From assembly GCA_017397845.1 (NCBI GenBank), contig JAFQHU010000011.1:5666-69665 (forward strand): a DNA stretch of 64,000 nucleotides. The letters are read 5' to 3'. The notes under the pieces were generated by a model. It searched no databases, was not told the origin of the DNA, and saw nothing but the letters and a program-made list of their open reading frames with translations. Shown here piece after piece: positions 37,853 through 56,131 of this stretch (positions are counted from its first letter, which is position 1; every line of letters begins with the position of its first letter). A program made the position numbers and the translations under genes. The stretch comes from Clostridia bacterium (lineage in GTDB: Bacteria > Bacillota > Clostridia > Oscillospirales > Acutalibacteraceae).

Positions 37853-39766
37853 ATGGAAAATTTATTAAATAAAAATCAGAAACAATGGTTTATATCGTTT
37901 CTTCTTGCTTCACTGACAGTTTTTTCGTACGGCTTAAAGATATCTCTGGCTGTTGTTCCTGAAAGTGTGACAGAACTGGAAATATATTCCTTTGCCCCCT
38001 TCAGGTTTATCACCGATATTATTTATTCGACTAAGGCACCTGATTGGTTTATGGTTTTGCTTTGTGCAGGCATGGCTTATCTGTATAATGAAAGGCTTTT
38101 TTGCAAAAGGAATGTGAAAAGCAGTGTCGCGATTACGGCAGTTTCTGCGGTTATTGTTTTTGCACTTCTGCTTTGTTACAGCTACAGCAACACCAATTCT
38201 TGGGATCTGGTTTTTGCGGGAAAGACAGTGTTTGCGAAGGCCTTGATAAAAGTTGCAGGCTTTACTCCTGCGGTGTTTATCGTTGTTGATTTTTTTGTGA
38301 ATCTTAATCTTGTAGTTACTCAGAATGAATCATATAAAGGTGAGCCTTTTAAAACCGTATTAATAACTGCCGCGGCTTTTATGCTGTGCTGGGTGCCGTA
38401 TTTCATTCTGCTTTATCCGGGATGTGTTACTAATGATGCTTTTGATCAGCTGGCACAGGCTATATATGCTCCTGGCTACTGCTGGAGTAAAAACACGGTA
38501 GTTCTTTTGGACGAAAGCGTTATACTTAATAACCATCATCCGCTATTTTACACTGGTGTTATGAAACTCACTGTAATGCTTGCTAAGGCTATGAATAATG
38601 CCTACGAAGCGGCCTTTGAGATTCTTTGTATTTTCCAGTCGCTGACTCTTGCGGTAACCTTTGCATATATGATTTATGTGATGCAGAAGAATAATGTCAG
38701 CAAACGTTACAGACTTGGAGTATTTTTATTCTGTGCCCTTAATCCGCTGTTCCCGATTTACGGGATGACGGTGGTAAAGGATACTTTCTTCTGTGCTATG
38801 TTTGTAGCGGTGGGAGTGCAGCTTTACGAGCTTCTTACACTTGAAAAAACCAGCATACAACGGTATGCAGTATTCTTTCTGACGGTTTTAATTTTCTTGT
38901 TTACACGAAATAACAGCGTGTATATTATGGGACTGATTGCATTGTGTGTAATTGTTCTTTATTTCAGAAGCAAGATAAAAATGATTAAAATAACAGCAAT
39001 AATTCTTGTACCTGTTATTTTATATCAGGTAGTATTCATCGGTATGATATGTCCTGCCTTTAGCATAACTCAGGGAAGTCCGCGTGAAATGCTTTCTGTT
39101 CCGTTTCAGCAGACGGCACGCTATATCAAAGAGCATCGCGATGAAATAACTCCGGAAGAGGAGGAGATAATCACTGCTGTTTTTAACTGCAATGATGATA
39201 TAGATACACTGACGGAGCTTTACGCAGGAAGTTTTGCAGATAATGTTAAGAACACCTTTAATAAGAACGCAACAAGTGAAGAACTCGTAAAGTATTTTAA
39301 AATGTGGTTCAGTTGTCTCATGAAGCATCCTATGACGTATGTAGAAGCTTATCTTAATCTTCATTACGGATGGTTCTCTTATGAAGGAAACAATTTCATT
39401 TCTTATGCATCGGTAGGAACCTGGTTCGGTGGGGAAATGATAAAGTCCTTTGAAGGTTATATGGGTAATAGTTCTATGAGAGCCATAGTAAGTAACGGTC
39501 TTGAATTTCTTAATAAAAGTCCACTTACATCACTGATGCTGGAAATGGCAACTTATACATGGCTATATCTGTTGCTTCTGTTCTACATCATAAAAAGAAA
39601 GAATAAATCGGGCTTTATAGTGTGCGGTCTGGCATTCTTTAACTACCTTATATCATTTGTAGGTCCTGTAGCCTATATGCGCTACGCTTTACCCATGGTG
39701 TGTCTTGCGCCTTTTGCAATATTCATAGTATTTAAAAAGAAAAAGGAGATTGAAAACAATGGATAA
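37853..39766 (+). CDS. Large polytopic membrane protein, candidate GT-C-type glycosyltransferase
   Basis: 637 aa with more than 10 TM segments and an extracytoplasmic-looking loop (DAFDQLAQA...NNHHPLFYT). It is translationally overlapped with the downstream GT2 gene. The function is inferred from context only. Confidence 0.45.
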   Translation: MENLLNKNQKQWFISFLLASLTVFSYGLKISLAVVPESVTELEIYSFAPFRFITDIIYSTKAPDWFMVLLCAGMAYLYNERLFCKRNVKSSVAITAVSAVIVFALLLCYSYSNTNSWDLVFAGKTVFAKALIKVAGFTPAVFIVVDFFVNLNLVVTQNESYKGEPFKTVLITAAAFMLCWVPYFILLYPGCVTNDAFDQLAQAIYAPGYCWSKNTVVLLDESVILNNHHPLFYTGVMKLTVMLAKAMNNAYEAAFEILCIFQSLTLAVTFAYMIYVMQKNNVSKRYRLGVFLFCALNPLFPIYGMTVVKDTFFCAMFVAVGVQLYELLTLEKTSIQRYAVFFLTVLIFLFTRNNSVYIMGLIALCVIVLYFRSKIKMIKITAIILVPVILYQVVFIGMICPAFSITQGSPREMLSVPFQQTARYIKEHRDEITPEEEEIITAVFNCNDDIDTLTELYAGSFADNVKNTFNKNATSEELVKYFKMWFSCLMKHPMTYVEAYLNLHYGWFSYEGNNFISYASVGTWFGGEMIKSFEGYMGNSSMRAIVSNGLEFLNKSPLTSLMLEMATYTWLYLLLLFYIIKRKNKSGFIVCGLAFFNYLISFVGPVAYMRYALPMVCLAPFAIFIVFKKKKEIENNG

Positions 39767-40712
39767 AATAGCAGTTCTTATTCCCTGTTACAACGAAGCC
39801 AAAACAATAAAAAAGGTTGTTGAGGATTTCAAATCAGCACTTCCGGACGATGCAGTAATTTATGTTTATGACAATAATTCCTCTGACGGCACTGCAGAAA
39901 TAGCCAAAGAAGCAGGTGCTGTGGTTCGTTATGAGCGTAAGCAGGGTAAGGGTAATGTAATCAGAAAAATGTTTTATGAAATAGATGCCGAATGTTATAT
40001 TATGGCTGACGGTGACGACACCTATCCTGCTGAAAGTGCAGGTGAGATGGCTGATAAAGTTCTCAGTGAGGGTGTGGATATGGTTATCGGTGACCGTCTT
40101 TCATCGACTTACTTTACTCAGAATAAGCGTCCCTTCCATAATTTCGGTAACGATTTGGTAAGAAAGAGTATAAATCTGCTTTTCAAAAGTGATATAAAGG
40201 ATATCATGACCGGCTATCGCGCCTTTAGCTATCGTTTCGTTAAATCATTTCCGCTGCTTTCAAAAGGCTTCGAAATTGAAACTGAAATGAGTATCCACGC
40301 AGTGGATAAGAACATGACTTTGGAAAATGTGGTAATCGAATATCGTGACCGTCCTGAGGGCAGTGAGTCAAAGCTTAACACCATTTCAGACGGTATCAAG
40401 GTTCTCAGAACCATAGTTCGTCTTTTCAGAAACTATAAACCTCTCAGATTTTTCGGTATTATTGCCGCTGTTCTTGCGATTCTGAGCATAGGCTTCTTTA
40501 TTCCCGTTCTGGTGGAATACATTAAAACAGGACTCGTACCTCATTTCCCTACTCTCATCGTGTGCGGTTTCACGGCTGTTGCTGCTATACAGTCTCTTTT
40601 TTCGGGTCTGATTCTTGAAAATATACAGCAGAAAAACAGACAGGACTTTGAGATGGCTCTTATTAATATAAGACATCATTATCTGGAGAAAAAAGGTGCA
40701 GACGATGATTGA
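39759..40712 (+). CDS. Family 2 glycosyltransferase, polyprenyl-phosphate sugar synthase type (GtrB/CsbB-like)
   Basis: IAVLIPCYNEAKTI, YDNNSSDGT and MADGDDTYP (DxD) motifs, plus two C-terminal TM helices. ATG 39759 with SD AAAGGAG overlaps the upstream stop codon. Confidence 0.85.
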   Translation: MDKIAVLIPCYNEAKTIKKVVEDFKSALPDDAVIYVYDNNSSDGTAEIAKEAGAVVRYERKQGKGNVIRKMFYEIDAECYIMADGDDTYPAESAGEMADKVLSEGVDMVIGDRLSSTYFTQNKRPFHNFGNDLVRKSINLLFKSDIKDIMTGYRAFSYRFVKSFPLLSKGFEIETEMSIHAVDKNMTLENVVIEYRDRPEGSESKLNTISDGIKVLRTIVRLFRNYKPLRFFGIIAAVLAILSIGFFIPVLVEYIKTGLVPHFPTLIVCGFTAVAAIQSLFSGLILENIQQKNRQDFEMALINIRHHYLEKKGADDD

Positions 40713-41100
40713 GCTTATAAAACAGTTAGTTAAGTTTGGCTTTGTTGGTGGTATTTGCTTCGTAATAGACTATGGAGTGATGGTGCTGCTCACAGAGGTG
40801 GCAGGGATGGAATATCTTCTTTCCTGTGGAATATCCTTTACTGTTTCTGTTATTGCGAATTATATTCTGAGTATGAAGTTCGTTTTTGAAAGAAAAGATA
40901 ATATGGACAGAAGGGTAGAGTTTATAATTTTTGTAATTATGAGCGTTATAGGTCTGGGTTTAACGGAGCTTCTTATGTGGGTATTCGTTGACAAGGCTGA
41001 TATTCATTATATGATTTCGAAGATAGTAGTTACGGCCATAGTTATGGTATATAACTTTGTTACTCGAAAGATTTTTTTAGAAAAGAAAAAAAGTTCATAA
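40696..41100 (+). CDS. GtrA family membrane protein (polyprenyl-phosphate-sugar flippase-like)
   Basis: 134 aa, four TM segments, LVKFGFVGGICFVIDYG N-terminus and YNFVTRKIF C-terminus typical of GtrA. The start is either GTG 40696 or ATG 40705. Confidence 0.8.
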   Translation: MQTMIELIKQLVKFGFVGGICFVIDYGVMVLLTEVAGMEYLLSCGISFTVSVIANYILSMKFVFERKDNMDRRVEFIIFVIMSVIGLGLTELLMWVFVDKADIHYMISKIVVTAIVMVYNFVTRKIFLEKKKSS

Positions 41101-41106
41101 AACGAA

Positions 41107-41140
41107 GAGCAACCGATTTTATTTCGGTTGCTCAGATTTT
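41107..41140. terminator. Bidirectional terminator between convergent genes
   Basis: 10-bp stem GAGCAACCGA / TCGGTTGCTC with a T-rich tail on the plus strand. Confidence 0.7.
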
Positions 41141-42090
41141 TATATTAATTTATATTCAAATCTTGTATAATCACCGGTCTTATATTCACCGCTGATAAAT
41201 TTACGAGCCCGGAAGATCACTTTGTCTTCATAAACTTCGCACAAATAACCGACACCGCAGTCTGTGATACCGAAGTTGTTTTCCTTTCTGTAGCCTGGGA
41301 TACTGATGGAATGCACATTGTTTTCTTCGTTTATTACTTCTGCCACTTTTTCAAAAATGCCGCCGTGAAGATGTCCGTTGATGAAAAATACATTCTTATA
41401 TTTTTCCATAACTGCTCTGACTTCGTCATTCTGTTCGCCCATATCGCCTGTCTTCCATACTTCGGGAAGACCGTGGGTTTCAGCAAAGGGCTGATGGCAC
41501 ATAACGAAAACGGGCTTTCCGTCTTTGGTTCCTCTGGCTAATTCTTTGTCTAAAAAAGCAATCTGCTCAGGGGAAATATACGCTTTTTCCAATATTCTCT
41601 TTTCAGTACATAAAACTATAAAGGTATAACCCTTGATATCGCAGGAGTAATAAACCTTTCCTGTATTGTCACCGAGATAATCCCTGATTTTTTTTATGAG
41701 GATTTTTGTGTTCTTTTTAAAAAACAAACGGGCATCATGGTTTCCCATGGTAACAAGTAGCTTATCAGCGACATTCTGTTTGTCGAGAACACGGAAAAAT
41801 CTTTCGTATTCATTATCGGTTCCGTAGTCGGCTATGTCACCCGCCATGAGAAAGGTATCAAACTTTTCCTTTGAGTTTGCCATATCTTCGAAAGTATTGG
41901 CAAGATTTTTTTCCGCACTTTCTCTGTTCGGTAAATGTGTGTCGGCAATTATTGCCATGGAAAGCTTAATGTTTTCGCTGTCTTCGAAGGTGATGGGCTC
42001 ATCCTTTGACACAGTATAAATCACGTCGTATTTCGGATTCATAGCTTTGAACTGTTTGATATATTTGTCTATAAAGATTTTGGCTGACAT
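41140..42090 (-). CDS. Calcineurin-like metallophosphoesterase
   Basis: IIADTHL, GDIADYG, GNHD and GHLHG metal-binding motifs in canonical order. Confidence 0.8.
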   Translation of the reverse strand: MSAKIFIDKYIKQFKAMNPKYDVIYTVSKDEPITFEDSENIKLSMAIIADTHLPNRESAEKNLANTFEDMANSKEKFDTFLMAGDIADYGTDNEYERFFRVLDKQNVADKLLVTMGNHDARLFFKKNTKILIKKIRDYLGDNTGKVYYSCDIKGYTFIVLCTEKRILEKAYISPEQIAFLDKELARGTKDGKPVFVMCHQPFAETHGLPEVWKTGDMGEQNDEVRAVMEKYKNVFFINGHLHGGIFEKVAEVINEENNVHSISIPGYRKENNFGITDCGVGYLCEVYEDKVIFRARKFISGEYKTGDYTRFEYKLI

Positions 42091-42190
42091 AGGTTTTTTA
42101 CCTCCGCAAATTTTATGCTTTTAATTATATCAGCATTTCGTCTTTTTTTCAAGTGGTCGTTATATAAGATTATTCCCGCTCGGTGAAACG

Positions 42191-43057
42191 TCATGGCAAA
42201 AAAAGCTTATTACCGTTTAAATCGAAATCTCTCATACTCACTCTTTCTATGCTGATGCTGTCACATCTGTTATAATAATACACACCCGTATCTGTGTTGC
42301 AGCATGAAGAGTATCGGGTGTAATGGGCTCCACCGCTTTTTCTTACACATCCCTGCGGAACACTGACCAAAGACAGCATACGGAAAAATTGATTCACGCT
42401 TTCATCTTCACCGCTTTTTGGTGAAGATTTTTCTTTTAGGCAGGCGGCGCGTATAAACCTCGACTCCGAGGAAAAGTCGCCGGGCAAAGCTTTGTCAGAA
42501 AGCATAAATGTTTCTGTATTAATCATATGGCGGTCAAATGTGGGATTGTTTGAAAGCACTCCCCATGGGTTATTATAAATTCTGAGTCCCTCTGCGACGC
42601 TTTCTACGGTAACGGAGCCGCTTTTGTCCGATATTATCCAATGGAGAGGCGATAAGGGATAATTCTCGCTGAAGGGCAAATTCACTATATTGAGCTCTTT
42701 TAATTTTTCCTTAACGTCACACAGACATGCACATTTGCCCAAAAGCCATGGTATCAGCTCGTAAGGAGCGAGGTTGATTTTATCCGGCTTCGCTTTGCCG
42801 TAAAATGCATTGTCGGGAAAGTTCAGTCCCGCCATACTCAGGCCCTTTTCGTTTGTGCCCTCGAAAAAGAGGGGATATCCATCCGTTATTACAGCCATAC
42901 CTATGAGCGCAAAGTGTTCGTGAAGGTCAGGCAGCAGCTTTATCGGAAAAGAGAATTTTCGTGGTATAACGGTAACCTTCTCACCGTATTCCATATCCAA
43001 ATCTAAATTTCTGCCGAAGTAAAAATCATTACTTTTATAAGTCAGTGCTGTACACAT
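42191..43057 (-). CDS. Choloylglycine hydrolase family protein (bile-salt hydrolase / linear amide C-N hydrolase, Ntn)
   Basis: Start moved to ATG at 43057 (SD GGGAGGCAA), giving MCTALTYKSNDFYFGRNLD with the nucleophilic Cys2 typical of this family. Confidence 0.85.
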   Translation of the reverse strand: MCTALTYKSNDFYFGRNLDLDMEYGEKVTVIPRKFSFPIKLLPDLHEHFALIGMAVITDGYPLFFEGTNEKGLSMAGLNFPDNAFYGKAKPDKINLAPYELIPWLLGKCACLCDVKEKLKELNIVNLPFSENYPLSPLHWIISDKSGSVTVESVAEGLRIYNNPWGVLSNNPTFDRHMINTETFMLSDKALPGDFSSESRFIRAACLKEKSSPKSGEDESVNQFFRMLSLVSVPQGCVRKSGGAHYTRYSSCCNTDTGVYYYNRCDSISIERVSMRDFDLNGNKLFLP

Positions 43058-43218
43058 AATATTGCCTCCCTTGTCTTTTTTTATTTTATCCTTAAATGAA
43101 AAATCTAAGCATATAAAAAGCAATTTTAGCTATCGTTTTTTTGTTTTGAGAAAAATATTAAAAATAATTAAAAATTAGGAATGGGAAATTAAGAATAAAT
43201 AAGAAACGGCTTTTACGG

Positions 43219-43705: not shown

Positions 43706-44428
43706 ATGTATATAGCTATTCATATTATTTCAATAATAATTGCCCTCGCTTTCAGTGGGTATCACGGATATAAGCTCGGTATCGGAAAAGCAAAATCAGT
43801 TCTGATTTCCGTTTTTTGCCTTATGACCTGTTATATTTTTGTCAGTGCGATACCATGGTTTGAAAGCGGTGAAATCGGCTCTCTCAATATGGTGAAAATT
43901 TATGCCTTTACCCCGCCTTTTTATTTCCTGGCAAGCAAGGTTTTCAAAGTACCCTTCAGAAATGTGTGCGACCTTAACGGTATATGGCCTATGATTCTTT
44001 TCGGTCTTTCTCATATGGCTTGCCTGATTCCTAAGTGTTGTGGCGGTTATGTGTATCTCGAAGGAACGAAAATGTGTGCTTTGGCACAGGCTCTCACAGG
44101 AACAAATATGATACCGAATCAGCTTATGGAGTCCATAGCAGGTCTGATTATTGCTTTGGCAATGTTCATTCTCGCATATAAAAAAGACTTTAAACTTAAC
44201 GGCAGACACTATTTTATAATGATAATTGTTTACGGTATTCAGAGATTTTTCTGGGAGTTCCTCAGAAATAATAATAAGATAATAATATTCGGAGAAATGA
44301 CCAACGCCGAAAGCGGTTATTTCGGCTTGTCTGACCTTTCTTTTTACTGTATAGCGATGATAGCGGTCGGCGTAGTATTCATTATTGCACTTAATATTAT
44401 TGATAAGAAAAAGGGTAAAGAAAATTAA
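43706..44428 (+). CDS. Polytopic membrane protein, weakly Lgt-like
   Basis: 240 aa, about 6-7 TM segments. YGIQRFFWEFLRNN resembles the Y-G-x-x-R-F-x-x-E-F-x-R motif of prolipoprotein diacylglyceryl transferases. Other Lgt motifs were not recognised. Confidence 0.45.
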   Translation: MYIAIHIISIIIALAFSGYHGYKLGIGKAKSVLISVFCLMTCYIFVSAIPWFESGEIGSLNMVKIYAFTPPFYFLASKVFKVPFRNVCDLNGIWPMILFGLSHMACLIPKCCGGYVYLEGTKMCALAQALTGTNMIPNQLMESIAGLIIALAMFILAYKKDFKLNGRHYFIMIIVYGIQRFFWEFLRNNNKIIIFGEMTNAESGYFGLSDLSFYCIAMIAVGVVFIIALNIIDKKKGKEN

Positions 44429-44499
44429 GTTATTTATAGTTTTTATTTAAACTTTAAATATAAAAATATGAATACAGGAGGTGTGTCAGTTCAAACCGA

Positions 44500-44547
44500 T
44501 TACTCATTCTGAATGAGTAACAACCGAATACTCATTTAAAATGAGTA
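44500..44547. promoter_or_regulatory. Tandem palindromes (candidate operator or 5'-UTR hairpins) upstream of the giant ORF
   Basis: TTACTCATTC-T-GAATGAGTAA (44500-44520, perfect 10-1-10) and TACTCATTT-A-AAATGAGTA (44529-44547, perfect 9-1-9). They are embedded in a ~29-nt direct duplication (CAAACCGATTACTCATT... / CAACCGAATACTCATT...). Confidence 0.45.
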
Positions 44548-44578
44548 AAGTTCCGAAATTTTTAATAGGAGGAAAATC

Positions 44579-47500
44579 ATGTTAGTAACAAAAAGAGAAG
44601 TTAAGCAAACTTCTAAAAAGCTTTTAAGTGTGTTACTTGCGGTCATTATGATTATGACCAGCATGAGCGTATGCTTCGGCACTGTATCCTTTGCCGCAGG
44701 TAAGGATGTGGATGTAACTGCACTCGCTGACGCACTTAAGTATGACAGCATTAAAAATGCATCATTCTCCGGCTCGGCCAATAACTATACAGTCAGTGAC
44801 CCTGACGGTAAAGTTCTTGCGGCAGTAGATGCTTATTTTGCAGTAGTAGATGCTATGGCAAATAAGACACCTACAAATCAGAACCCTTCTACAGGTACAT
44901 CCAGTACCAATCAGACTGGTGAATCATCTGACAAAACCTACAGAACCATCAACCATCTTAATGCCAGAGTAAAAACTCTTCTCAGCAATAAGATGGGCGG
45001 TGACTACACTACATATAATGTGGATGCTTTCATCACAGGTCTTTTGGCAGGATCAACAGTCAGTGAAGGAACCTCAAAGAAAACTGTAGGTCCCGCTACA
45101 TCAAACAACACCGCAAAACCTGCTACACCTCTTGCTGCTGCTCCCGATGTGAAGCTTACGGTTATGATGGAAAGTGCTGTTACGGGATACACTCTTGATA
45201 CTCTTCCCGACAGCGTAGTTACATCAAAGACCTACACAGTAAAGCACGCTAATACAAACTATGATTATAAGTTTACTTATACAGCAGCTACAAAGGATAG
45301 TTGCGGTAACAGTAACAATGATCAGAAGTATCAGCATGACTATTGGTTCTACTATAACTACAGCTCATATTCAGCAGAAGACGGCGCTTCTAAGTCTACA
45401 CAGACTATCAAAAACACACAGTCTACTCTGGAGACTTACGCTGACTATTTCTCAATGGGTATGGATGCGCTTTATGCTGTTCCTGCCTCCACTCTTGACA
45501 CAGTAAGCACTGCTGTGAAAAATGCTAAAGCAAATGTCGTCAGCGGCTTTGGTGCAGGTGTTTACTCTCACTTCTTCTCATCTTATAATGTGGAGAAGCT
45601 TACAGGTGACATCATTATCGCTAAAGAAATCCAGGTTCTTGCTCCCAAACTTCTCAAAGCTTACGAGGAGATGGAAAAGGGCTACGATGATATCATTAAC
45701 GATAAAGACGCTCTTAACACCCTCGCACAGACTGTGAAGACAGCTATGGATGCTTATGATGCAGCCTCTGCAGATGCTAAGACCTATGTTACAGAGGCAG
45801 GCTTCATCCGCACTGAAGCAGCAACCTTCTACAGCAAGGTTCTCCGTGAAATCGAGCTTATCGAGCTTCGTGAGCTTGTTGAAGAAATTACAGAAGGTAT
45901 CAAACCTTATGCTTTCTATACTGAAGACGGTATCGATGAAGGTACAGTAACATCAAAGATGATCGGTGATGCTCTTACTGCTGTTAGCGGTTATCAGACC
46001 CGTCTTGCAAAGTACAATACTGCAGATGTTGATGACATTAATCCCGGTATACGTGGCGGACTTTTTGATCTTAAGAATGTTCTTAATACTCTCAGCGTAG
46101 CTGCCGGCTATAATGATCAGTTCAGTGCACAGTATGCAAAATTTGCTTCTGAAATCTTCTCCGTAACCGATGCAAACGGTGACATCGGAACTCTTCTTTC
46201 CGCTCTTCAGAGCTATGACGGCTGGTACACAGGTCTTAAGTCTCTTATCGCAGAAATGAAATCAGTTCTCGGTGAAGAGCTCGCTGACAAGCTCTTTGAT
46301 GACCTTAACGATGTTATGACAGAGCGTATGGATGATGCTTATGTAGCACTCAATGCTCTTCTTGAAGCACAGATTGACTATGCTTACGATCTCTTTAAGG
46401 CATACACAAGTGCCTATGGCGAAAAGGTTAGCATGGCAACTGTTTCCGAGTATAGAGCCATGCAAGCTTCGATTGGTCTTATAAATGCTGATGCTTACAG
46501 CTTGCTTAACGGCACAGCCAACTTTGAAATTTCCGATGAAGCAGTGGCTAAGTACGAAGAAATGCAGAAGGATTTCCCTGAATATGAGGAATTCCTTGAC
46601 AGTCACGGCTTCTCGACCTATCAGCAGACATTTATGCCTGACCTCGAGAGACCCGACACAGAAAAGGATATCGCCCGTGAAAACGAGGATGGTGTTTACA
46701 AGACATCCGATGCAGAAATCGAAAAGATAATCAACCTTCTCGATAATCTTCTTCAGAACGATGCTGTAAAGGAACTTCTCGGTTCTCTTATTAATAAGGA
46801 TGAGGAAACAGGTGAGCCTACAGGTGAGCCCTTTGATATTGCAGACCTTATTTCCGGTCTTCTCGAAGATGTGGTTTATACTGACAGTCTTATCAACACC
46901 ATCGTTCAGTATGTATATCCTCTCGTTTGTAAGGAATTTGCAAAGGTTTGGGCAGGTCTTCCCTCCACATTCACAGCATTAGGTGTTGAAACGGGTGTTT
47001 CTCTTGCTCCTACAGCCGATGTTAAGGATTGTCCTCTTTATCTCGACGATGTAGAAAAAGCTATCGGATCAGTAGGTGTTTATCTCTCTCCCGTTAAGCT
47101 CGCTGAAAATCTTAAGAAAAATAACGATTATAAAGGCTATACTCAGGTAATTGCAAAGCTCGAATCTGCTACTACTAAGGCAGTTTATAACCTCAACGGT
47201 GAAGGTGATGCTGACGATACTTTCCAAAATCCCTGGGAAGATGCAAATCTTTTCACTAATGTTTATGATGAAGTAACAGGTGAACAGGTATTCAATGACG
47301 ACGGTACACCCAAGCAGGTCTACGACCTTAATTGGGGTGTAGATGAAGCTACCGATAAGAAAGCTGCATTTATCAACGCAGCTTGTGCAGCTCTTTCGGG
47401 TCTTGAACCTCTTCTTATGGCTATCATCGCTGATACCACTTATGTTAACCCAAATACAACAGGCACAGATGCCCGCGGATCAAAAATCGGTACAGGTAAG

Positions 47501-50500
47501 GGTACAGCACAGGTAAAGGGTCTTGGTTTCATTCCCATCACACTTACTCTTAATATCGATCCCATCACTCTTGTTCTTAACTTCCAGGGTAACGATGGTT
47601 GGGACAACGCTCTTGCTCCCATTTTTGAAGCTCTCGGCCTCACCAATATTCCTCATAGCCATGAGCTTAATACCACCAGAAAGCTTCTTGAAAAAGGTCT
47701 TTTTGCTATGATTGACCAGCTTATCAGTAAGGTAGCAGAAGCTCCCGTAACCTTCATTCTTGAGGCTCTTCCGAATCTTGCTTATGCTCTTGAGGGTGGT
47801 CTTGTTGAGCCTCTTCTGAGTATGCTTAAGACAGAAATCAGCTACTATGCTGACGCTGCATACACAGGTACTCTTGGTGATAATCAACTTGCAGCAAGTG
47901 TTCTTAAGGAAGCCATGAAATCAGAAGAACCTATCAAGATTAACATCGGTGAAATGATTAACCTTGAGGATATGGGTCTCGACATCAGCTCCTTCCAGGC
48001 TATTTGGGATATGATCGCAGGCGGCGTTGAGCTTCTCGCAGGTATGGAAGCTCCCGATGCAGGTAAGATCGCAACTATGGGTAAACTCGTAGAGAGAAAC
48101 ACCAACAGAAGCGCTAAAACCTATAACCACGGCTCAGCAGACAAAGCTTACCACATCGAAGCTAACAAGGCAGACGTTCTTGTATATCTTCTTAAGTATG
48201 TTCTCGGCAGCGGTCTTATCGACGGACTCGTAGAGAATCCCGAAGGTATCATAGCTGACCTTCTTACAAATCTCAATGAAAATCCCGATGTAATTCTTGC
48301 TGCGGTTGTCGAGCTCTTCAATCAGAAGGAATATGACACTCTCAGAAACTTCGAATGGTTCGAAGGCTATATTAACGGTGAATCCGTGATAGGTAACTCA
48401 GCTAACGCTATTTACCTTAATCCTGAAAACGATTGGACCGAAGAGAAGGCACAGTATCTTTATGAAAACCTTGATTCTATCGTATCTGCTGTCCTTACTA
48501 TGGCTAAGCTCGACCTCGATAAGGAAACAGAGGAGCTTGAAACACTCGGTGATTTCATCGGCGGTGCTATCGGCGGTCTTCTCAGTGACAAGACACTCAC
48601 AGCTCTTGCTAAGCTTCTCGGAAGCCTCGCTGACATTAACAGCCTCATCGCAGGCGAAGATGCTGCAGAGCCTCTTCCAGTTGATGTTGCAGCTCTCCTC
48701 ACAGAATTCCTCGGCATTGATTTGAGCGTTTACGCTGACTATGCAGACATCGCAGAAGATGAAATCGTTGACTTCGGCGTAGATGCAGGTACAGTTACCT
48801 TTGCTGAGGCTCTCGCTGATATGCTCGCACCTCTTTCTCCCGTTCTTGACTTCATTCTCGCAGGTGAAAACCTCGTTATCACCGTTGAAGACGAAACAGT
48901 AGAGCTTGTAGGTTATGACGGCTATAACAACGCTATCATTCCTATTCTTGAAGCTCTCGGCTGTGATGTTGCAGTAAATCCCGAAAACGCACTTGAAGCT
49001 GTTATCACAGCTCTTATGGGCAAGATTGAAGCTATCACAAAGTCAGAAACACTCATCAAGGATATCATCGATCTTCTTCCCGGTGTATTCTATTTCATCG
49101 CATCTAAGGGCCTTTCAGTTTCCGTAAGAAACCTTCTCCAGCCCGTATATGTAATCCTAGATACCGTCAGACCTGTATTTGATCTTGACCTCAATGCTAC
49201 CATCAATGATCTTCTTCCCGAAGACTTCGGCATTATGCTCAATATCGATGATATCGGTCTTGACCTCGTATTCGATCTTCTTAAGAAGTTCGTTCCCGAA
49301 CTTGACCTTTCAGGTCTTAAGGATGTTATCTATGACATCTGCTACAATGTAGGCACTGAATATGAATCCGTTTCCACACTCCAGGATAATTGGAAGAAGG
49401 GTGCATTCGGCGATAATTTCAGCGCTGCTGACCTTCTCACAGTAGTTCTTTCATTCGTTCTCGAATGGGCTACCGTCGAAGAAAACGGAGAAAAGCTCGA
49501 CGAAATGCTCGGCACAGAAGATCTCATCGCAAATATCGGTAAGGTATTTGAGGATGTAGAAATTGCATACGGTACACCGAATTGGATGTATTGGTTCGCA
49601 ACAGAGGAAGAATTCAATTCCTATGTGGAGGGTAACACAGAGCTTCCCAATACACTTCTTTCTCTCACATATCCTAACGATTGGTCAGAGGAGGCAGCTG
49701 CTTATATTGCTGACAACCTTGCTTCTCTCGTTGATATGGTGATTTCTCTCATCGAAATCGACGGCACCAAGTACGCTTCGGTTGCTGAACTTATTGATGC
49801 GAAGCTCGATGTATTCAATGCTGAAACAATCAACAGCATCATTGGTCTTATCGCAGACCTTCTTAAGGATGTAGACGATAATCTCCTTTCAGTAGGTTAT
49901 CTTCTCGATGTAGATGTAGTAGGTCTTAAGAACTACACATGCACAGCAGAAATCACTGACGTCAAGTCCTTTACTCAGGAACTCGCAAACATTCTTACAA
50001 AATACGCACACGGTCTCGTTAACTGGCTCTTCTTTGGTGATGACTTCAGATTTGCTAAGAAGTCTGACAAGACAGATACTATTGTAATCAACGGTGGCGA
50101 AGGCTATGAAAAGGGTCTTGCTCTCGTTCTCGAAGCACTCGGCTGTGACCTTCCCGAAAAGGCAACAACCGAAACAGTTCTTCTTGCTCTTGCTGCAAGA
50201 GTTGAAGAAATCCTTGCTTCTCCCGTAAACGAAGTTATAGACCTTCTTCCCAATCTCGTTTACTTCCTTAACGCTGACGGTGCATCCGTAGCCGTTAATA
50301 ACCTTCTCGCTCCCGTTTATGCACTTCTCGATAAGCTCGCAGTGCTTGGCGTTGAGCTTGATCTTGCAACTCTTCTCGGCTTCGACCTTAAGTATCTCTC
50401 ACTTGCAGATATCCTTGCTCTCGTTAAGGATAAGACAGGTCTTGACATCTCTGCAGCTGAAGAAATTCTCGTAAATCTCTGCTTCGGTAAAATTGAACAG

Positions 50501-53461
50501 GCAGAATATACTTACAAAATGGTTGCAGAAAGAAAAGATGTTGTAACAGTTGTTCTTACCACAGCACTTCTTCTTGTTAAAGATGAGGACTTTGCAGCCA
50601 AACTCGAAGAAATGATGGGAACAGAACTTATTTCTGCGATTGTTGAAGTATTTGAATCCGCTCCCGTAACCTATAAGACACCTGATTGGTATGCTCTCGA
50701 TGAAAGCGATATCGATTATGATAACGAAACAGTCGGCGTAATCAAGTATGCTATCACTTATCCTAACAACTGGACGGAAGAAAGTGCCAAGTATCTTGCT
50801 GACAATCTCGTTTCCGTCGGAGATATGGTTGCAGGCATTATCGACAGCAACTATGATTCTCTCGGTGCACTTCTCGCTGACAAGGTAAATATCTACACGG
50901 CAGATACTCTTAAGGCTATTCAGAATCTTCTCGGTGATCTCATCGGCGGCCTTGATGAAAATCTTAAAGAACTTGTAAATGTAGGTCTCGGCGCTGCAGA
51001 TGCACTCCTCGGTGCAGATGTTCAGGGTCTTCTGGATTACGATGTATCCTCCGTAAATGATAAGGCATCCTTTATAGCTGCCCTTACCGGCATGCTTATG
51101 GAGGTTGAGGGTCTTGTTGACTGGCTTCTTCTCGGTCAAAGCTACGAGCTCTTTGTTGATGACGTAAATGCAAACGGTGTATATGATGAAGGCGAAGCAA
51201 TCATCACACTCAATGGCGGTCACGGTTATGCTGAAGGTCTTGCACTTGTACTCGAAGCACTTGGTGTCGAAAATCTTCCCGATGTTTATGCGATGGAAGA
51301 AATCGATACCGAAGCAGTGGTAGGTGACGTTCTTAACGCTGTATTTGACAGAGTTGACGCTGTCTTCAATAACCCCGTGGAAGAAGTATTCGAAATTCTT
51401 CCCAATGTTCTCTATTTCATCAATGCAAACGGACTTACCGTAGCAATAGAAAACCTCATCGGTGCCGTAAACGCACTTCTCATCAAGCTTGAAGGCTTAG
51501 GTGTTGAGCTTGATATTGCATCTCTTGTAAACTTCAGTGAAATTCTCGGTGTTGAAACTGAGCTTGCTCTTGATAACATCACAATAGAAGCCGTGATTGA
51601 TCTCGTTGCTGAGCTTACAGGTCTTAACCTTGATGCGGTTGCAGATGTACTTGTCGGCTTTGCACTTGGCAGAGTTGCCGCTTATGATTCAGTAAGCAGT
51701 GCAGACATCACAGCGAAAATGTATTATCACGATGATTTCGCCAAATATGATATGATCACCGTGCTTGCTACAGTAGCCATTATCATCCTTACAGATGAAG
51801 CTAATGCTGAAAAGGTTAAGGATATGCTCGGTGAAGATATTTATCAGGTAGTACTCAATCTTGTAAATATGGGCGAAGTTGAAATTCAGGAATTCAATTG
51901 GATGTTCACAAGTGAAGAAACCGGCGGTAACAGAGTTGGCGAAACCTTCTCTGCACTCGAAAGCTCCGAAGTCTTCGCAGGACATTCCTACGGTCCCACC
52001 TTCACAGAGGAAATGGCTCAGTACATCGCTGATAATTTTGGCAAATTTGTAGATAATGTTATTTACCTTCTCGGTATTGACATTAACAGCGACGGAAAGG
52101 CAGAGACTAACCTTACAGAAACCATTAACAGCTTGCTTAACGGTTCGCTTTACAATAGTGAAAATGTAATTGCTGTCCGTGATGCTCTTGCGGGTGTGCT
52201 TGCAAATCTTACAGAGCTTCAGGTTAACGGCAAGGTAGTAGGCGGTCTTATCGCTGACGTTCTCAAAACAACAGGTATCGCAGATATCGCAGCAGTAGCT
52301 GAAGTTGAAATTCCCGAATTCAAAGAAGACAGAGCACAGTTTGTTGCCTTTCTCTGCGATGTTCTTGAACCTCTTTACGGTATACTCAGATACGTTCTTG
52401 CTGACGAAGATTTCACCTTCTTCGTAAATGCAGAAAAGAGCGATGCGATCACTCTTAAGGGTGCAGAAGGCTATGCATACGGTATCCTTCCTCTTCTCGA
52501 AACTCTCGAATGTGAAGGCATACTTGCTCCCGCTGATTACTATGCTGCTGTAGAGGCTGACGGTGATGTGCTTCTCACATCCATCCTTAATCCTCTTCTT
52601 GACAGAGTAGATGTAATTCTTGAAGCTCCTGCAGATGAAATTCTTGCGATGCTTCCGAACCTTATCTACTTCATCAATTCAAACGGTGTTGACACAGTAG
52701 TCAAAAACACACTTAATGCAGTCTATGCACTTCTTGCTGCTATTGAGCCGATTGCCAAGATTGATCTTTATGAGCTTATCGGTGTAGATCTTGCCGTAAT
52801 TGATTTCGAATGGCTTCTCGATAAGCTTCTCGAAGTAATCAAAGATGCTACAGGCTACGAATTCACTGTCGAAGATATCGACTATATCTTGGAGCTTACT
52901 GTCGGTAAGCTTGAAGCTTACGATTCACTTAACGGAAAGACCGCTTATAAGATGGTTTATTCAGAGGGTGAAATCGGTGACTCAAAAGAGCTTGTGGTTG
53001 TCGTACTCAGACTCATAGTAACCTTTATCGCAAATGAGAACAACGCTGAGCTTCTCGTAGGTCTTCTCAGAGATAATCTCGGTATGTCTGCAGAGGTAGA
53101 GGAATTTGTTCGCGGACTTCTCACCGTTTTGGTTGAATGTATTTCCGGAACTAAGCTCGGTGTCGATGTTGCACTTTCCACTCTTTACTATGTATTCTTC
53201 GGTATAGATAAGGGTGTAGGAGAAGCAGTCGGCGGTACAAAAACACTTGATCAGCTTTGGAGAGATGCTTTGTCCGACCTCAGAAGAGAAAATGAGGGCG
53301 TGGCAGACATGATTGAGGATATTCTCGGTTGGGATATCTTTGAGGATGTTATTTCTCCCGACGGCATCGCTCCCAACGGACTTATCGCATTCTTCCAAAA
53401 GATTATATCCTGGTTCCAGACAATCGTAGCATGGTTCAAAAGCTTCTTTAAAATAGCTTAA
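44579..53461 (+). CDS. Giant secreted acidic repeat protein, 2,960 aa, function unknown
   Basis: Uninterrupted 8.9-kb ORF with SD AGGAGG (44567-44572). Signal-peptide-like N-terminus KKLLSVLLAVIMIMTSMSVCFGTVSFAAG, five internal ~375-440-aa modules, and the amphipathic C-terminus LIAFFQKIISWFQTIVAWFKSFFKIA. Confidence 0.85.
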   Translation: MLVTKREVKQTSKKLLSVLLAVIMIMTSMSVCFGTVSFAAGKDVDVTALADALKYDSIKNASFSGSANNYTVSDPDGKVLAAVDAYFAVVDAMANKTPTNQNPSTGTSSTNQTGESSDKTYRTINHLNARVKTLLSNKMGGDYTTYNVDAFITGLLAGSTVSEGTSKKTVGPATSNNTAKPATPLAAAPDVKLTVMMESAVTGYTLDTLPDSVVTSKTYTVKHANTNYDYKFTYTAATKDSCGNSNNDQKYQHDYWFYYNYSSYSAEDGASKSTQTIKNTQSTLETYADYFSMGMDALYAVPASTLDTVSTAVKNAKANVVSGFGAGVYSHFFSSYNVEKLTGDIIIAKEIQVLAPKLLKAYEEMEKGYDDIINDKDALNTLAQTVKTAMDAYDAASADAKTYVTEAGFIRTEAATFYSKVLREIELIELRELVEEITEGIKPYAFYTEDGIDEGTVTSKMIGDALTAVSGYQTRLAKYNTADVDDINPGIRGGLFDLKNVLNTLSVAAGYNDQFSAQYAKFASEIFSVTDANGDIGTLLSALQSYDGWYTGLKSLIAEMKSVLGEELADKLFDDLNDVMTERMDDAYVALNALLEAQIDYAYDLFKAYTSAYGEKVSMATVSEYRAMQASIGLINADAYSLLNGTANFEISDEAVAKYEEMQKDFPEYEEFLDSHGFSTYQQTFMPDLERPDTEKDIARENEDGVYKTSDAEIEKIINLLDNLLQNDAVKELLGSLINKDEETGEPTGEPFDIADLISGLLEDVVYTDSLINTIVQYVYPLVCKEFAKVWAGLPSTFTALGVETGVSLAPTADVKDCPLYLDDVEKAIGSVGVYLSPVKLAENLKKNNDYKGYTQVIAKLESATTKAVYNLNGEGDADDTFQNPWEDANLFTNVYDEVTGEQVFNDDGTPKQVYDLNWGVDEATDKKAAFINAACAALSGLEPLLMAIIADTTYVNPNTTGTDARGSKIGTGKGTAQVKGLGFIPITLTLNIDPITLVLNFQGNDGWDNALAPIFEALGLTNIPHSHELNTTRKLLEKGLFAMIDQLISKVAEAPVTFILEALPNLAYALEGGLVEPLLSMLKTEISYYADAAYTGTLGDNQLAASVLKEAMKSEEPIKINIGEMINLEDMGLDISSFQAIWDMIAGGVELLAGMEAPDAGKIATMGKLVERNTNRSAKTYNHGSADKAYHIEANKADVLVYLLKYVLGSGLIDGLVENPEGIIADLLTNLNENPDVILAAVVELFNQKEYDTLRNFEWFEGYINGESVIGNSANAIYLNPENDWTEEKAQYLYENLDSIVSAVLTMAKLDLDKETEELETLGDFIGGAIGGLLSDKTLTALAKLLGSLADINSLIAGEDAAEPLPVDVAALLTEFLGIDLSVYADYADIAEDEIVDFGVDAGTVTFAEALADMLAPLSPVLDFILAGENLVITVEDETVELVGYDGYNNAIIPILEALGCDVAVNPENALEAVITALMGKIEAITKSETLIKDIIDLLPGVFYFIASKGLSVSVRNLLQPVYVILDTVRPVFDLDLNATINDLLPEDFGIMLNIDDIGLDLVFDLLKKFVPELDLSGLKDVIYDICYNVGTEYESVSTLQDNWKKGAFGDNFSAADLLTVVLSFVLEWATVEENGEKLDEMLGTEDLIANIGKVFEDVEIAYGTPNWMYWFATEEEFNSYVEGNTELPNTLLSLTYPNDWSEEAAAYIADNLASLVDMVISLIEIDGTKYASVAELIDAKLDVFNAETINSIIGLIADLLKDVDDNLLSVGYLLDVDVVGLKNYTCTAEITDVKSFTQELANILTKYAHGLVNWLFFGDDFRFAKKSDKTDTIVINGGEGYEKGLALVLEALGCDLPEKATTETVLLALAARVEEILASPVNEVIDLLPNLVYFLNADGASVAVNNLLAPVYALLDKLAVLGVELDLATLLGFDLKYLSLADILALVKDKTGLDISAAEEILVNLCFGKIEQAEYTYKMVAERKDVVTVVLTTALLLVKDEDFAAKLEEMMGTELISAIVEVFESAPVTYKTPDWYALDESDIDYDNETVGVIKYAITYPNNWTEESAKYLADNLVSVGDMVAGIIDSNYDSLGALLADKVNIYTADTLKAIQNLLGDLIGGLDENLKELVNVGLGAADALLGADVQGLLDYDVSSVNDKASFIAALTGMLMEVEGLVDWLLLGQSYELFVDDVNANGVYDEGEAIITLNGGHGYAEGLALVLEALGVENLPDVYAMEEIDTEAVVGDVLNAVFDRVDAVFNNPVEEVFEILPNVLYFINANGLTVAIENLIGAVNALLIKLEGLGVELDIASLVNFSEILGVETELALDNITIEAVIDLVAELTGLNLDAVADVLVGFALGRVAAYDSVSSADITAKMYYHDDFAKYDMITVLATVAIIILTDEANAEKVKDMLGEDIYQVVLNLVNMGEVEIQEFNWMFTSEETGGNRVGETFSALESSEVFAGHSYGPTFTEEMAQYIADNFGKFVDNVIYLLGIDINSDGKAETNLTETINSLLNGSLYNSENVIAVRDALAGVLANLTELQVNGKVVGGLIADVLKTTGIADIAAVAEVEIPEFKEDRAQFVAFLCDVLEPLYGILRYVLADEDFTFFVNAEKSDAITLKGAEGYAYGILPLLETLECEGILAPADYYAAVEADGDVLLTSILNPLLDRVDVILEAPADEILAMLPNLIYFINSNGVDTVVKNTLNAVYALLAAIEPIAKIDLYELIGVDLAVIDFEWLLDKLLEVIKDATGYEFTVEDIDYILELTVGKLEAYDSLNGKTAYKMVYSEGEIGDSKELVVVVLRLIVTFIANENNAELLVGLLRDNLGMSAEVEEFVRGLLTVLVECISGTKLGVDVALSTLYYVFFGIDKGVGEAVGGTKTLDQLWRDALSDLRRENEGVADMIEDILGWDIFEDVISPDGIAPNGLIAFFQKIISWFQTIVAWFKSFFKIA
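47588..53461 (+). repeat. Five divergent protein-level tandem modules inside the giant ORF
   Basis: Anchor motifs begin at nt 47588, 48911, 50093, 51215 and 52460: GNDGWDNALAPIFEALG, GYDGYNNAIIPILEALG, GGEGYEKGLALVLEALG, GGHGYAEGLALVLEALG and GAEGYAYGILPLLETLE. Confidence 0.75.
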
Positions 53462-53542: not shown

Positions 53543-53580
53543 AAAAAAATACAGCCGGAATACTACGGCTGCATTTTTTC
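53543..53580. terminator. Bidirectional terminator (serves the minus-strand rubredoxin operon)
   Basis: CAGCCG / CGGCTG stem flanked by an A7 run and a T6 run. Confidence 0.55.
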
Positions 53581-55285: not shown

Positions 55286-55506
55286 ATAAATATATTATTA
55301 TAGTATATAAAAAATGTTTTTTTCGGTTGATTTTTTCGGAAAATGGTGGTAACTGAATTTGCGACGTTAACTGAATAACTTTTGAGAATACAAATTCACT
55401 AAAGAAAGCATACTTTGTTAAAAGTGTGTTCTCTTTGTTTTGTTATTTTTTCTTGTGTTGGAATAAATTCAAAAGTTAGCGTCGCGGCTCGGAGAATGCA
55501 TTTTTG

Positions 55507-55537
55507 GTGCGTTCTGCTTGTCGGGACGCACTTTTTT
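55507..55537 (+). terminator. Terminator-like hairpin in the leader of the Cys-rich protein gene (attenuator or sRNA end)
   Basis: GTGCGTTCT / GGGACGCAC stem (6 Watson-Crick pairs plus G-U/G-C extension) followed by T6. It ends 37 nt upstream of ATG 55574, and there is no upstream plus-strand CDS. Confidence 0.5.
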
Positions 55538-55573
55538 GTTTGTCGTAAATATTTATTTACGGAGGAAAAAACA

Positions 55574-56131
55574 ATGAAAAAGGTAGTGAAAAACTTATTG
55601 CTTGTAGCAGTTATGGTTATGCTGTGTATGACTGTGGCTGTCAGTGCGAGTGCACTTGATGAAACAGGTCAGTGCGGTGAAACTTATGTTGATGATTATA
55701 CAGATAAACTCGACCACGAGTATAAATCAGTAATCACTACCCCTGCAACTCACCTTACCGAGGGTGTTGAAACCTTCACCTGTTCTTGCGGTGACAGCTA
55801 TACAAAGCCTGTCGCAAAGCTTAAAGGTCACACCTACAGTACTTCCGTAACGGCTCCCACCTGTACAGCGCAGGGTTATACAACTTATATCTGCGAATGT
55901 GGAGACAGTTATATCAGTGATTTTGTTTCAGAAACAGGACATAAGGATGAAAATAATGACGGCATATGTGATGGCTGTGGTATAAAGCTTAAAACAGACA
56001 GCAATAAAGACAACTGCACCTGTATGTGTCACAAATCCGGCTTGATGGGAATCATATGGAAAATCATCCGTTTTTTCTATAAGCTCTTTAAAATCAATCC
56101 TGTCTGCGCTTGCGGTGCAGCACACTATTAA
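55574..56131 (+). CDS. Small secreted Cys-rich protein with an amphipathic aromatic tail and terminal CxCGxxHY
   Basis: Start moved to ATG 55574 (SD ACGGAGGAA). Signal peptide KNLLLVAVMVMLCMTVAVSASA, two T(F/Y)xCxCGDSY units, DENNDGICDGCG, and C-terminus CTCMCHKSGLMGIIWKIIRFFYKLFKINPVCACGAAHY. Confidence 0.6.
   Translation: MKKVVKNLLLVAVMVMLCMTVAVSASALDETGQCGETYVDDYTDKLDHEYKSVITTPATHLTEGVETFTCSCGDSYTKPVAKLKGHTYSTSVTAPTCTAQGYTTYICECGDSYISDFVSETGHKDENNDGICDGCGIKLKTDSNKDNCTCMCHKSGLMGIIWKIIRFFYKLFKINPVCACGAAHY

Follow-up and report, generated by a model that had tools for sequence, protein, structure and literature searches.

The window studied here is a 64,000-nucleotide stretch from a Clostridia bacterium of the family Acutalibacteraceae (GenBank assembly GCA_017397845.1, contig JAFQHU010000011.1, positions 5,666 to 69,665). 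Its forward strand carries a giant open reading frame (ORF) of 8,883 nucleotides (nt) at 44579..53461, which encodes an acidic protein of 2,960 amino acids (aa) with an isoelectric point (pI) of 4.1. Five tandem modules of ~390 residues each make up the C-terminal two thirds of this protein. While giant modular surface proteins are known as a kind, the module founds a new domain family and, judging from its predicted structure, probably a new fold. The family consists of proteins of 2,500 to more than 9,000 residues that are left blank by current annotation, and its module would rank among the longest units so far seen to repeat in bacterial surface proteins.

The module array

Self-comparison of the protein established the repeats. 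A self-BLAST of the entire protein returned the diagonal only; BLASTP searches of each 150-aa window against the remaining sequence exposed 32 off-diagonal matches at offsets of ~370-440 aa, with E-values down to 7.5e-29. Internal periodicity, the lack of which would have refuted the repeats, is therefore highly significant. A preliminary description of this DNA had placed five modules at anchors beginning at aa 1004, 1445, 1839, 2213 and 2628 (nt 47588, 48911, 50093, 51215 and 52460), and both self-comparison and alignment agree with these positions. Cut at the anchors, the five pieces align collinearly from end to end (MAFFT) with a pairwise protein identity of 19-36%, and the anchor consensus G-x-x-G-(W/Y)-x-x-(A/G)-(L/I)-x-(P/L)-(I/V/L)-(F/L)-E-(A/T)-L is found in 5/5 copies. 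Two further blocks named in that description are seen in the same alignment, namely LLPNLxYF(L/I)N, which takes a degenerate form in copy 1, and (Y)PN(D/N)W(S/T)EE, which occurs in copies 1-4. The picture needed refinement at both ends, as the fifth module is truncated and a sixth fragment probably lies upstream of the first.

All modules lie on the forward strand, and the first four were recovered by BLASTP, MAFFT and a hidden Markov model (HMM). Module 1 (47588..48910, aa 1004-1444) is the most divergent copy, and the first modules of relatives form one long-branch clade with it. Module 2 (48911..50092, aa 1445-1838) and module 3 (50093..51214, aa 1839-2212) were also modelled with AlphaFold. 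By their place in the module tree, module 3 and module 4 (51215..52459, aa 2213-2627) are of the internal type, which is the type duplicated in longer relatives. Module 5 (52460..53374, aa 2628-2932), delimited by the HMM, is partial and covers the first ~300 of the ~400 module columns (columns 1-307 of the 404-column HMM) before the C-terminal tail begins. The last copy is likewise truncated in relatives.

The array is old. Nucleotide identity among the copies had been described as modest owing to diverged third codon positions, and it indeed amounts to 39-53% overall and 27-40% at third positions, which is near saturation. No array was detected at the DNA level by Tandem Repeats Finder. The view that the duplication is ancient and did not arise by slippage holds for these two reasons, and the clustering of modules by position across relatives (see next section) agrees with it. 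Selection on the copies had been proposed as well: the ratio of non-synonymous to synonymous substitution rates (dN/dS) against three orthologues is 0.12-0.30 per module, with purifying selection in all modules, and 0.12-0.36 along the whole ORF against orthologues. An antisense ORF at 50399-51223 (274 aa) was rejected as a real gene, being irregular and absent from the orthologues L008 and L009; antisense frames inside the giant ORF are by-products of codon composition.

Upstream of copy 1, a probable partial module, here called B0, spans 46703..47587 on the same strand (aa ~709-1003). It corresponds to approximately the last third of a module and contains a large inserted hairpin region. Using hhalign on an N-terminal profile of 57 orthologues and a module profile of 73 sequences, we matched aa ~709-960 to module columns 261-389, starting at the (Y)PNDWTEE block, with a probability of 88% and an E-value of 3.3e-6. 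In local mode only two collinear pieces were recovered (E ~6e-4), and the region also gives weak collinear matches to the module HMM. On account of this match, the repeat region probably begins ~300 aa before the first anchor. The HMM of the five copies found no significant further copy in aa 1-1003, and together with local profile comparison it found none within aa 1-700. An A-type half-module (defined below) was likewise not found in the N-terminal region by local profile comparison.

Within the module, indels and columns of low information cluster at columns 21-30, 91-110, 231-250 (before the WTEE block) and 381-392 (before the anchor). The lowest confidence of the two-module structure model falls before and across the YPNNWTEE block of module 3, at about columns 212-262. 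Taken together, these observations suggest that each module divides into a sub-domain A, covering columns 1 to ~235, and a sub-domain B, covering columns ~250 to 392, with a layout of the protein as head-B0-(A1B1)(A2B2)(A3B3)(A4B4)-A5-tail. Re-phased at the WTEE block, this layout gives five complete B-A units, so that the units of the fold may be offset from those delimited by the anchors. A smaller sub-repeat within the module was rejected, as neither the A and B halves nor the A1 and A2 quarters share profile similarity; by this comparison of profiles, the sub-domains A and B appear not to be homologous to each other.

Structure prediction, foreseen in the preliminary description as a check, was done with modules 2 and 3 (768 aa), with an alignment of 91 two-module fragments as input. 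The AlphaFold model has a mean predicted local distance difference test score (pLDDT) of 80.6 and a predicted template modelling score (pTM) of 0.66. Each modelled module contains ~18 helices and two beta-hairpins, one in mid-module and one at the very end, before the next G-x-x-G-Y anchor. The unit had been said to differ from the beta-sandwich repeats of 90-110 aa found in classical Gram-positive adhesins, and both the modelled helices and the lack of a match to any known repeat family bear this out.

Searches for known families found none. For the whole protein, nothing better than E 0.1 was obtained against Pfam and NCBIfam. The novelty of the module stood up in Pfam, where 0/73 single modules matched a shared family, and Pfam assigned no family to three architecturally odd distant relatives or to the paralogues in the same genome. 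PHROG and PADLOC profiles gave no match, so no phage or defence-system family was recognised. Against the PDB, the best E-value was 0.06 by sequence and profile and 0.12 (TM-score ~0.1) by Foldseek with the two-module model; Foldseek against BFVD gave 0.023 at best. The top PDB matches in Foldseek were generic alpha-solenoids or spectrin/exocyst rods, with TM-scores of ~0.1. A confident model that lacks a PDB, BFVD or Pfam match recommends the module for experimental structure work and for registration as a new domain family.

Distribution and evolution of the family

A word-indexed search returned at least 263 homologues of 1,800-4,700 residues, all annotated as hypothetical and all from metagenome-assembled genomes (MAGs) of Clostridia, Ruminococcus or Acutalibacteraceae. 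A search with the single-module profile (HMMER), likewise foreseen as a check, retrieved 681 proteins at E <= 1e-3, of which 388 at E <= 1e-30, from 1.84 billion cluster representatives; the longest match has 7,691 residues and 18 matched stretches. GTDB species representatives yielded 272 confirmed stretches, almost exclusively in gut MAGs from ruminants and humans. Acutalibacteraceae are common in human and ruminant gut communities, and almost none of the carriers found is cultured. The module was present in 37/300 sampled genomes (22/185 genera) of this GTDB family, usually in both sampled genomes of a carrier genus, and in 0/398 sampled genomes elsewhere in the class (E <= 1e-15); these counts are from samples and support the statement that the module was not found in those searched. 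The literature searched contained no description of the module family. The 'giant proteins' of the Hodor megaplasmids carry S-layer/MBG domains and are unrelated.

The 2.31-Mb assembly itself contains four module-bearing ORFs with ~15,700 codons in total, i.e., ~2% of the genome. Besides the giant ORF of the window, these are a paralogue on contig C10 (2,480 aa, four modules), an 894-aa paralogue on contig C1 (C1:77911-80592, + strand; one to two modules) and an open frame of 9,354 codons on contig C12 (C12:143505-171566, - strand). The last has ~17 degenerate module pieces, the same kind of signal and aromatic tail as the giant protein, and no Pfam match in either half. Directly upstream of it, on the same strand, lies a 2,391-aa ORF with matches to the Listeria-Bacteroides repeat (Flg_new). 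The remaining giant ORFs of the genome, a Big_2 adhesin, an RHS-like protein and an NRPS (non-ribosomal peptide synthetase), are unrelated.

Array length varies within the family, and the N-terminal ~950-1,050 residues are constant in length across homologues. Among the first 120 homologues, 5 modules per protein were counted in 72 proteins, 6 in 38, 7 in 4, 8 in 4 and 10 in 2; GTDB loci carry from 4 to at least 12. Array length would be set by the number of internal modules kept in each lineage; total module counts range from 4 to ~18 across the family. All full-length relatives at >= ~57% identity have five modules, and six or more occur only at <= ~53% identity.

The history of the array was traced with FastTree (LG). 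The tree, rooted at the midpoint, holds 244 modules from the window protein and 48 relatives; these 49 proteins are complete and have 4, 5 or 6 modules each, while those that were truncated or non-contiguous were omitted. First modules form a single clade (support 1.0), and so do second modules apart from a few outliers and last modules except for one (support 1.0). A further clade (support 0.98) takes in nearly all modules of the internal kind (3 of 4; 3 and 4 of 5; 3, 4 and 5 of 6), with the '3 of 4' modules at its base. As the modules cluster by position, the duplications are older than the divergence of these species, and growth proceeded mainly via duplication of an internal module. With a midpoint root, the most economical history would start from an ancestor with four modules, the third of which was duplicated. 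Most duplications are old: even relatives of 7,000 residues have adjacent copies that share 25-40% identity. In a few lineages, e.g., the relatives P0002 and P0015, adjacent internal modules are 68-80% identical, which points to recent duplication there, unlike in the window protein.

Identity to relatives breaks abruptly along the protein. L004 is ~80% identical to the window protein save for aa 800-1200 (31-50%), while L047 is ~45% identical overall and yet 76-87% identical over just those residues. L006 and L012 show ~20% identity over aa 100-700 compared with 55-89% over the modules, and L007 is low until aa ~1600 and then reaches 72-88%. In all three of these relatives, identity is 15-27% over aa 100-500 (up to aa 700 in L006 and L012). 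The best-matching relative also switches between successive 100-residue bins. This pattern of identities indicates that the giant genes are mosaics formed by recombination among diverged alleles or paralogues, and the breaks identify the N-terminal head as the exchangeable part.

Head, tail and a possible surface fibre

The protein starts with a Sec-type signal peptide (44579..44698, + strand; aa 1-40; KKLLSVLLAVIMIMTSMSVCFGTVSFA/A) of n/h/c organisation, which is the sole segment of transmembrane (TM) grade in the Kyte-Doolittle profile. The signal peptide is strongly conserved in the family, except that its Cys is not invariant, and the same general type of signal (KK-LLS-h-LLAV-h-M...AFA) starts many secreted proteins of this genome. 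It is followed by the variable head (44699..46702, + strand; aa 41-708), with an alpha/beta domain at ~41-275 and a long-helix rod at ~300-615. The AlphaFold model of the N-terminal 963 residues (pLDDT 82.9, pTM 0.44) runs from a small alpha/beta domain with long hairpins through helices of 30-48 residues to a mixed helix/hairpin region that includes B0. Its best Foldseek match in the PDB has an E-value of 0.09, with nothing below 1e-3.

At the other end, the protein closes with an amphipathic aromatic helix, a putative in-plane membrane anchor (53375..53458, + strand; APNGLIAFFQKIISWFQTIVAWFKSFFKIA) that stands out by its conservation. The consensus (D/E)G-x-AP-N-G-h-I-x-F-F-Q-K-I-I-x-W-F-x-x-I-I-x-W-F-K-N-L-F, with approximately four hydrophobic positions per seven residues, describes the last ~30 residues of nearly all complete family members listed, even those less than 30% identical elsewhere. 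The tail HMM also matches the C-termini of the C10 paralogue, a 1,205-aa ORF and a 679-aa ORF in this genome. Similar aromatic tails end at least eight other signal-bearing ORFs. Otherwise unrelated signal-peptide proteins with such a tail include C15:32936-36550, C2:50662-52698, C13:44493-46166, C1:126190-127899, C3:1482-3539, C12:199379-200959, C24:3749-5398 and, in the window, C4:24071-25078; the last carried the label 'esterase-like' in the first reading of the bare sequence. Tails of a related kind are found on the 2,391-aa ORF beside the 9,354-aa gene and on a Cys-rich protein of the window (see next section). This recurrence suggests a general, previously undescribed C-terminal retention tag in this organism. 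That a membrane anchor can occupy this place is suggested by the 894-aa C1 paralogue, which ends there in a classical TM helix followed by KLKR and has no amphipathic tail; of the present observations, this hints most strongly at an anchoring role of the tail.

These features seem best explained, by a narrow preference on our part, if the protein is exported via Sec and stays tethered to the membrane as a fibre, with a variable head, a stalk of modules and an amphipathic helix as C-terminal anchor. A very acidic cell-envelope protein would be exported via Sec and lose its signal peptide, and its last ~25 residues would hold it on the outer face of the cytoplasmic membrane. The five helical modules beside the anchor would form a conserved stalk crossing the wall, and the fast-changing N-terminal ~660 residues (alpha/beta domain plus long-helix rod) would face outward as the interacting head. 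The modules are one new domain family, duplicated long ago, and homologous recombination between alleles and paralogues reshuffles the genes. The repeat and its age, purifying selection, the signal peptide, the conserved tail, the predicted secondary structure, the varying copy number, the mosaicism and the narrow taxonomic range come straight from the analysis; the surface location, the anchoring by the tail, the division into stalk and head, and any adhesive or protective role are inferred.

Several points weigh against a tethered fibre. No wall-binding domain of the LPXTG, SLH, CWB2 or other known type was found in the protein with Pfam and NCBIfam to back surface attachment. The tail matches no recognised C-terminal sorting signal in the same collections (LPXTG, PEP-CTERM, GlyGly-CTERM and similar); unlike known sorting signals, it is below the hydrophobicity threshold of a TM segment and has no terminal basic cluster. 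It might instead serve as an oligomerisation or secretion tag. The rod shape is also an assumption, as far as the arrangement of the modules goes, and the pTM of the N-terminal model is low. The constant copy number in close relatives means that length is not fast-switching here. Finally, the modules are very hydrophobic for a passive spacer, with a grand average of hydropathy (GRAVY) of +0.17 to +0.46, which would fit ligand binding too; Leu, Ile, Val and Ala together account for 38% of the giant protein, 40-44% of four of the five modules and 38% of module 2.

This hydrophobicity leads to the alternative that the modules are the working parts, i.e., a multivalent array that binds, for instance, a hydrophobic ligand, a lipid, a polysaccharide or the surface of another cell, copy number tuning avidity and not reach. 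Strong conservation of the modules (the dN/dS values above) fits such a role, as do the invariant residues G1, Y5, E14, D149, W199 and F327 and the YPNDWTEE block, which persist across very deep divergence. A domain of ~390 residues also far exceeds the needs of a spacer, and the existence of one- or two-module proteins (the 894-aa C1 ORF and frames of ~860-1,000 aa in relatives) means that a module can be useful without a long array. The reading nevertheless appears rather unlikely: neither the PDB, searched by sequence or with Foldseek, nor BFVD offers any likeness to a binding or enzymatic fold, and position-specific first, second and last modules fit distinct roles in a fibre at least equally well. 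Moreover, the part facing a ligand usually varies most, and here the most variable part is the head, not the modules.

An amphipathic helix can also bind membranes reversibly and might target that of another cell. Together with the missing covalent wall-anchoring signal, this would suit a released giant effector, matrix component or toxin-like factor, in which the tail would serve secretion, oligomerisation or target-membrane binding. This is very improbable. No toxin, peptidase, nuclease or RHS-type domain was detected in the Pfam, NCBIfam, PHROG and PADLOC scans, ordinary small secreted proteins share the tail (including the window ORF C4_24071_25078), and in one paralogue a true TM anchor takes the place of the tail.

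As a tethered fibre, the protein would resemble several known systems in function. In Periscope Proteins (SasG, Rib, Sgo_0707/SHIRT), a stalk of variable length projects an N-terminal domain; their repeats of ~80-130 aa, beta-rich or of alpha/beta type, share 82-100% identity with the adjoining repeats, and copy number changes between strains (PMC8201768). The protein described here likewise starts with a signal peptide and a region free of repeats, continues with many folded domains in tandem and closes with a putative attachment element, and its repeat number differs among homologues. In contrast, its unit is ~390 aa long and all-alpha with two hairpins, neighbouring units are 19-36% identical in protein and 39-53% in DNA, and there is no LPXTG signal. 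The high identity typical of Periscope repeats (82-100% in Sgo_0707) is absent, just a few distant relatives reaching 68-80%. Its modules are also orthologous by position, with copy number fixed in close relatives (five at >= ~57% identity).

Embp, with helical-bundle repeats that form rigid rods, is built from ~50 copies of F and FG repeats (FIVAR/GA) of ~125-170 aa, made of two triple-helix bundles (PMC7587433). Like Embp/Ebh of staphylococci, the present protein is a giant, acidic, alpha-helical Gram-positive repeat protein, and the proposed surface location and rod shape would be further common traits. The C-terminus of Embp/Ebh is membrane-associated and not sortase-linked, as is proposed here. 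Unlike in Embp/Ebh, the unit here is approximately three times longer, with ~18 helices, no internal sub-repeat and no FIVAR or GA match in Pfam. For all the proposed functional resemblance, repeat identity, repeat family and anchoring signal place the protein outside both groups. Fibrillar adhesins in general follow a stalk-plus-tip logic, evolve rapidly and are hard to annotate (PMC9210967). The same rapid evolution, difficult annotation and, as proposed, stalk-plus-tip logic apply here, but the class is recognised by known stalk and adhesive Pfam domains, none of which is present.

The combination of old, position-specific modules with a swappable head contrasts with the near-identical repeats of Periscope Proteins. 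As the modules are old and diverged, long stalks can apparently be built and maintained without high repeat identity. Low identity avoids the misfolding problem raised for such repeats (PMC8201768).

Neighbouring genes and a possible envelope chemistry

Directly upstream of the giant ORF lies a gene for a membrane protein of the Lgt family (43706..44428, + strand; PF01790, 46.9 bits), and no terminator-like site was found on the + strand between the two. The PF01790 match covers the C-terminal half of the profile only (positions 99-239). The gene was rejected as Lgt itself, as it is a distant paralogue that scores far under the NCBIfam equivalog cut-offs (38.9 bits with a cut-off of 334, and 34.3 with a cut-off of 118.9); a bona fide Lgt (232.8 bits) is encoded elsewhere in the genome. 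The Lgt-like clade retains D89, C106, C111, C112, G114, E142, R180 and E184 as invariants, with the motif C...GCC.G. Since these Asp, Glu, Arg and Cys residues are invariant, the paralogue is probably active. Besides the window, an Lgt-like gene lies upstream in 28/57 loci of relatives with upstream DNA, sometimes in two tandem copies (loci such as L021:4425-6069, L034:3882-5596 and L038:4464-6179).

This association raises the option of an atypical lipoprotein, the adjacent Lgt-like transferase lipid-modifying the Cys in the signal peptide (SMSVCFG). Apart from the recurring neighbour and its probable activity, the option is favoured by the fact that most family members have a Cys in the context ...S-V-C-F-G.... 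A lipobox, however, requires an invariant Cys with a small residue at -1. The motif M-S-V-C, with Val at -1, misfits this rule, and L034, L036 and L054 have A, S or G in place of the Cys, all three with the Lgt-like gene upstream (in one case in two tandem copies). Furthermore, around half of the loci have no Lgt-like neighbour; among five such genomes, two have a strong copy elsewhere and two showed none at E <= 0.001. The lipobox was therefore rejected, the Cys not being invariant even beside the Lgt-like gene, and modification of the giant protein by this transferase is hardly to be expected.

In 21/57 loci of relatives with upstream DNA, an OmpR-type regulator and a small histidine kinase with two TM segments are encoded divergently from the pair of Lgt-like and giant genes (examples are L004:3211-4988, L017:1966-3703 and L034:1985-3707, on the - strand relative to the giant gene). 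This two-component system is not adjacent in the window, and its best match in the same genome is on contig C8. Obligatory synteny was rejected for the Lgt-like gene (28/57 loci), for the two-component system (21/57 loci) and for a 141-aa ORF (2 loci, tblastn). Two palindromes noted at 44492-44548 in the first reading of the sequence, just 5' of the giant ORF, could be the operator for the two-component regulator of the family. Further upstream, 37853-41100 (+ strand) encodes DUF6020, GT2 glycosyltransferase and GtrA proteins of envelope glycosylation.

A structural envelope layer has to be weighed too, in which the protein would assemble with itself sideways into an S-layer-like coat or sheath around the cell, with no individual projecting fibres. 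It would accord with the very acidic pI, the heavy genomic investment (four ORFs, ~2% of the genome), the glycosylation genes close upstream and the envelope-type two-component system beside the gene in 21/57 loci of relatives. The absence of SLH, CWB2 or any other known S-layer anchoring domain in Pfam and NCBIfam searches and the presence in just ~12% of sampled family genomes make it quite improbable, and mosaic head-swapping is rather a mark of exposed proteins that act like adhesins or receptors.

Two unexplained features are linked to the giant protein, the amphipathic tag on many secreted proteins and the Lgt-like paralogue beside its gene. A bolder and, in our opinion, unlikely extension of the fibre model would join the new fold, a dedicated Lgt-family transferase, the envelope two-component system and the new tag into an unrecognised cell-envelope system of Acutalibacteraceae. 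Giant helical fibres (up to 9,354 aa here) would then be attached or modified by lipid chemistry, and their heads would be exchanged by recombination to vary the display to hosts, phages or neighbours.

Downstream of the giant ORF, a consensus scan alone identified a terminator-like hairpin followed by a T-run, 90 nt past the stop codon (53552..53571, + strand). A loosely linked neighbour at 55415..56131 (+ strand) encodes a small Cys-rich secreted protein, in which the related tail is followed by CxCG..HY; 8 other loci, too, encode a homologue no more than 4 kb away from the giant gene, on either side of it. Upstream of the Lgt-like gene, 41140-43123 (- strand) encodes a calcineurin-like phosphoesterase and a protein of the choloylglycine hydrolase family (bile-salt-hydrolase-like).

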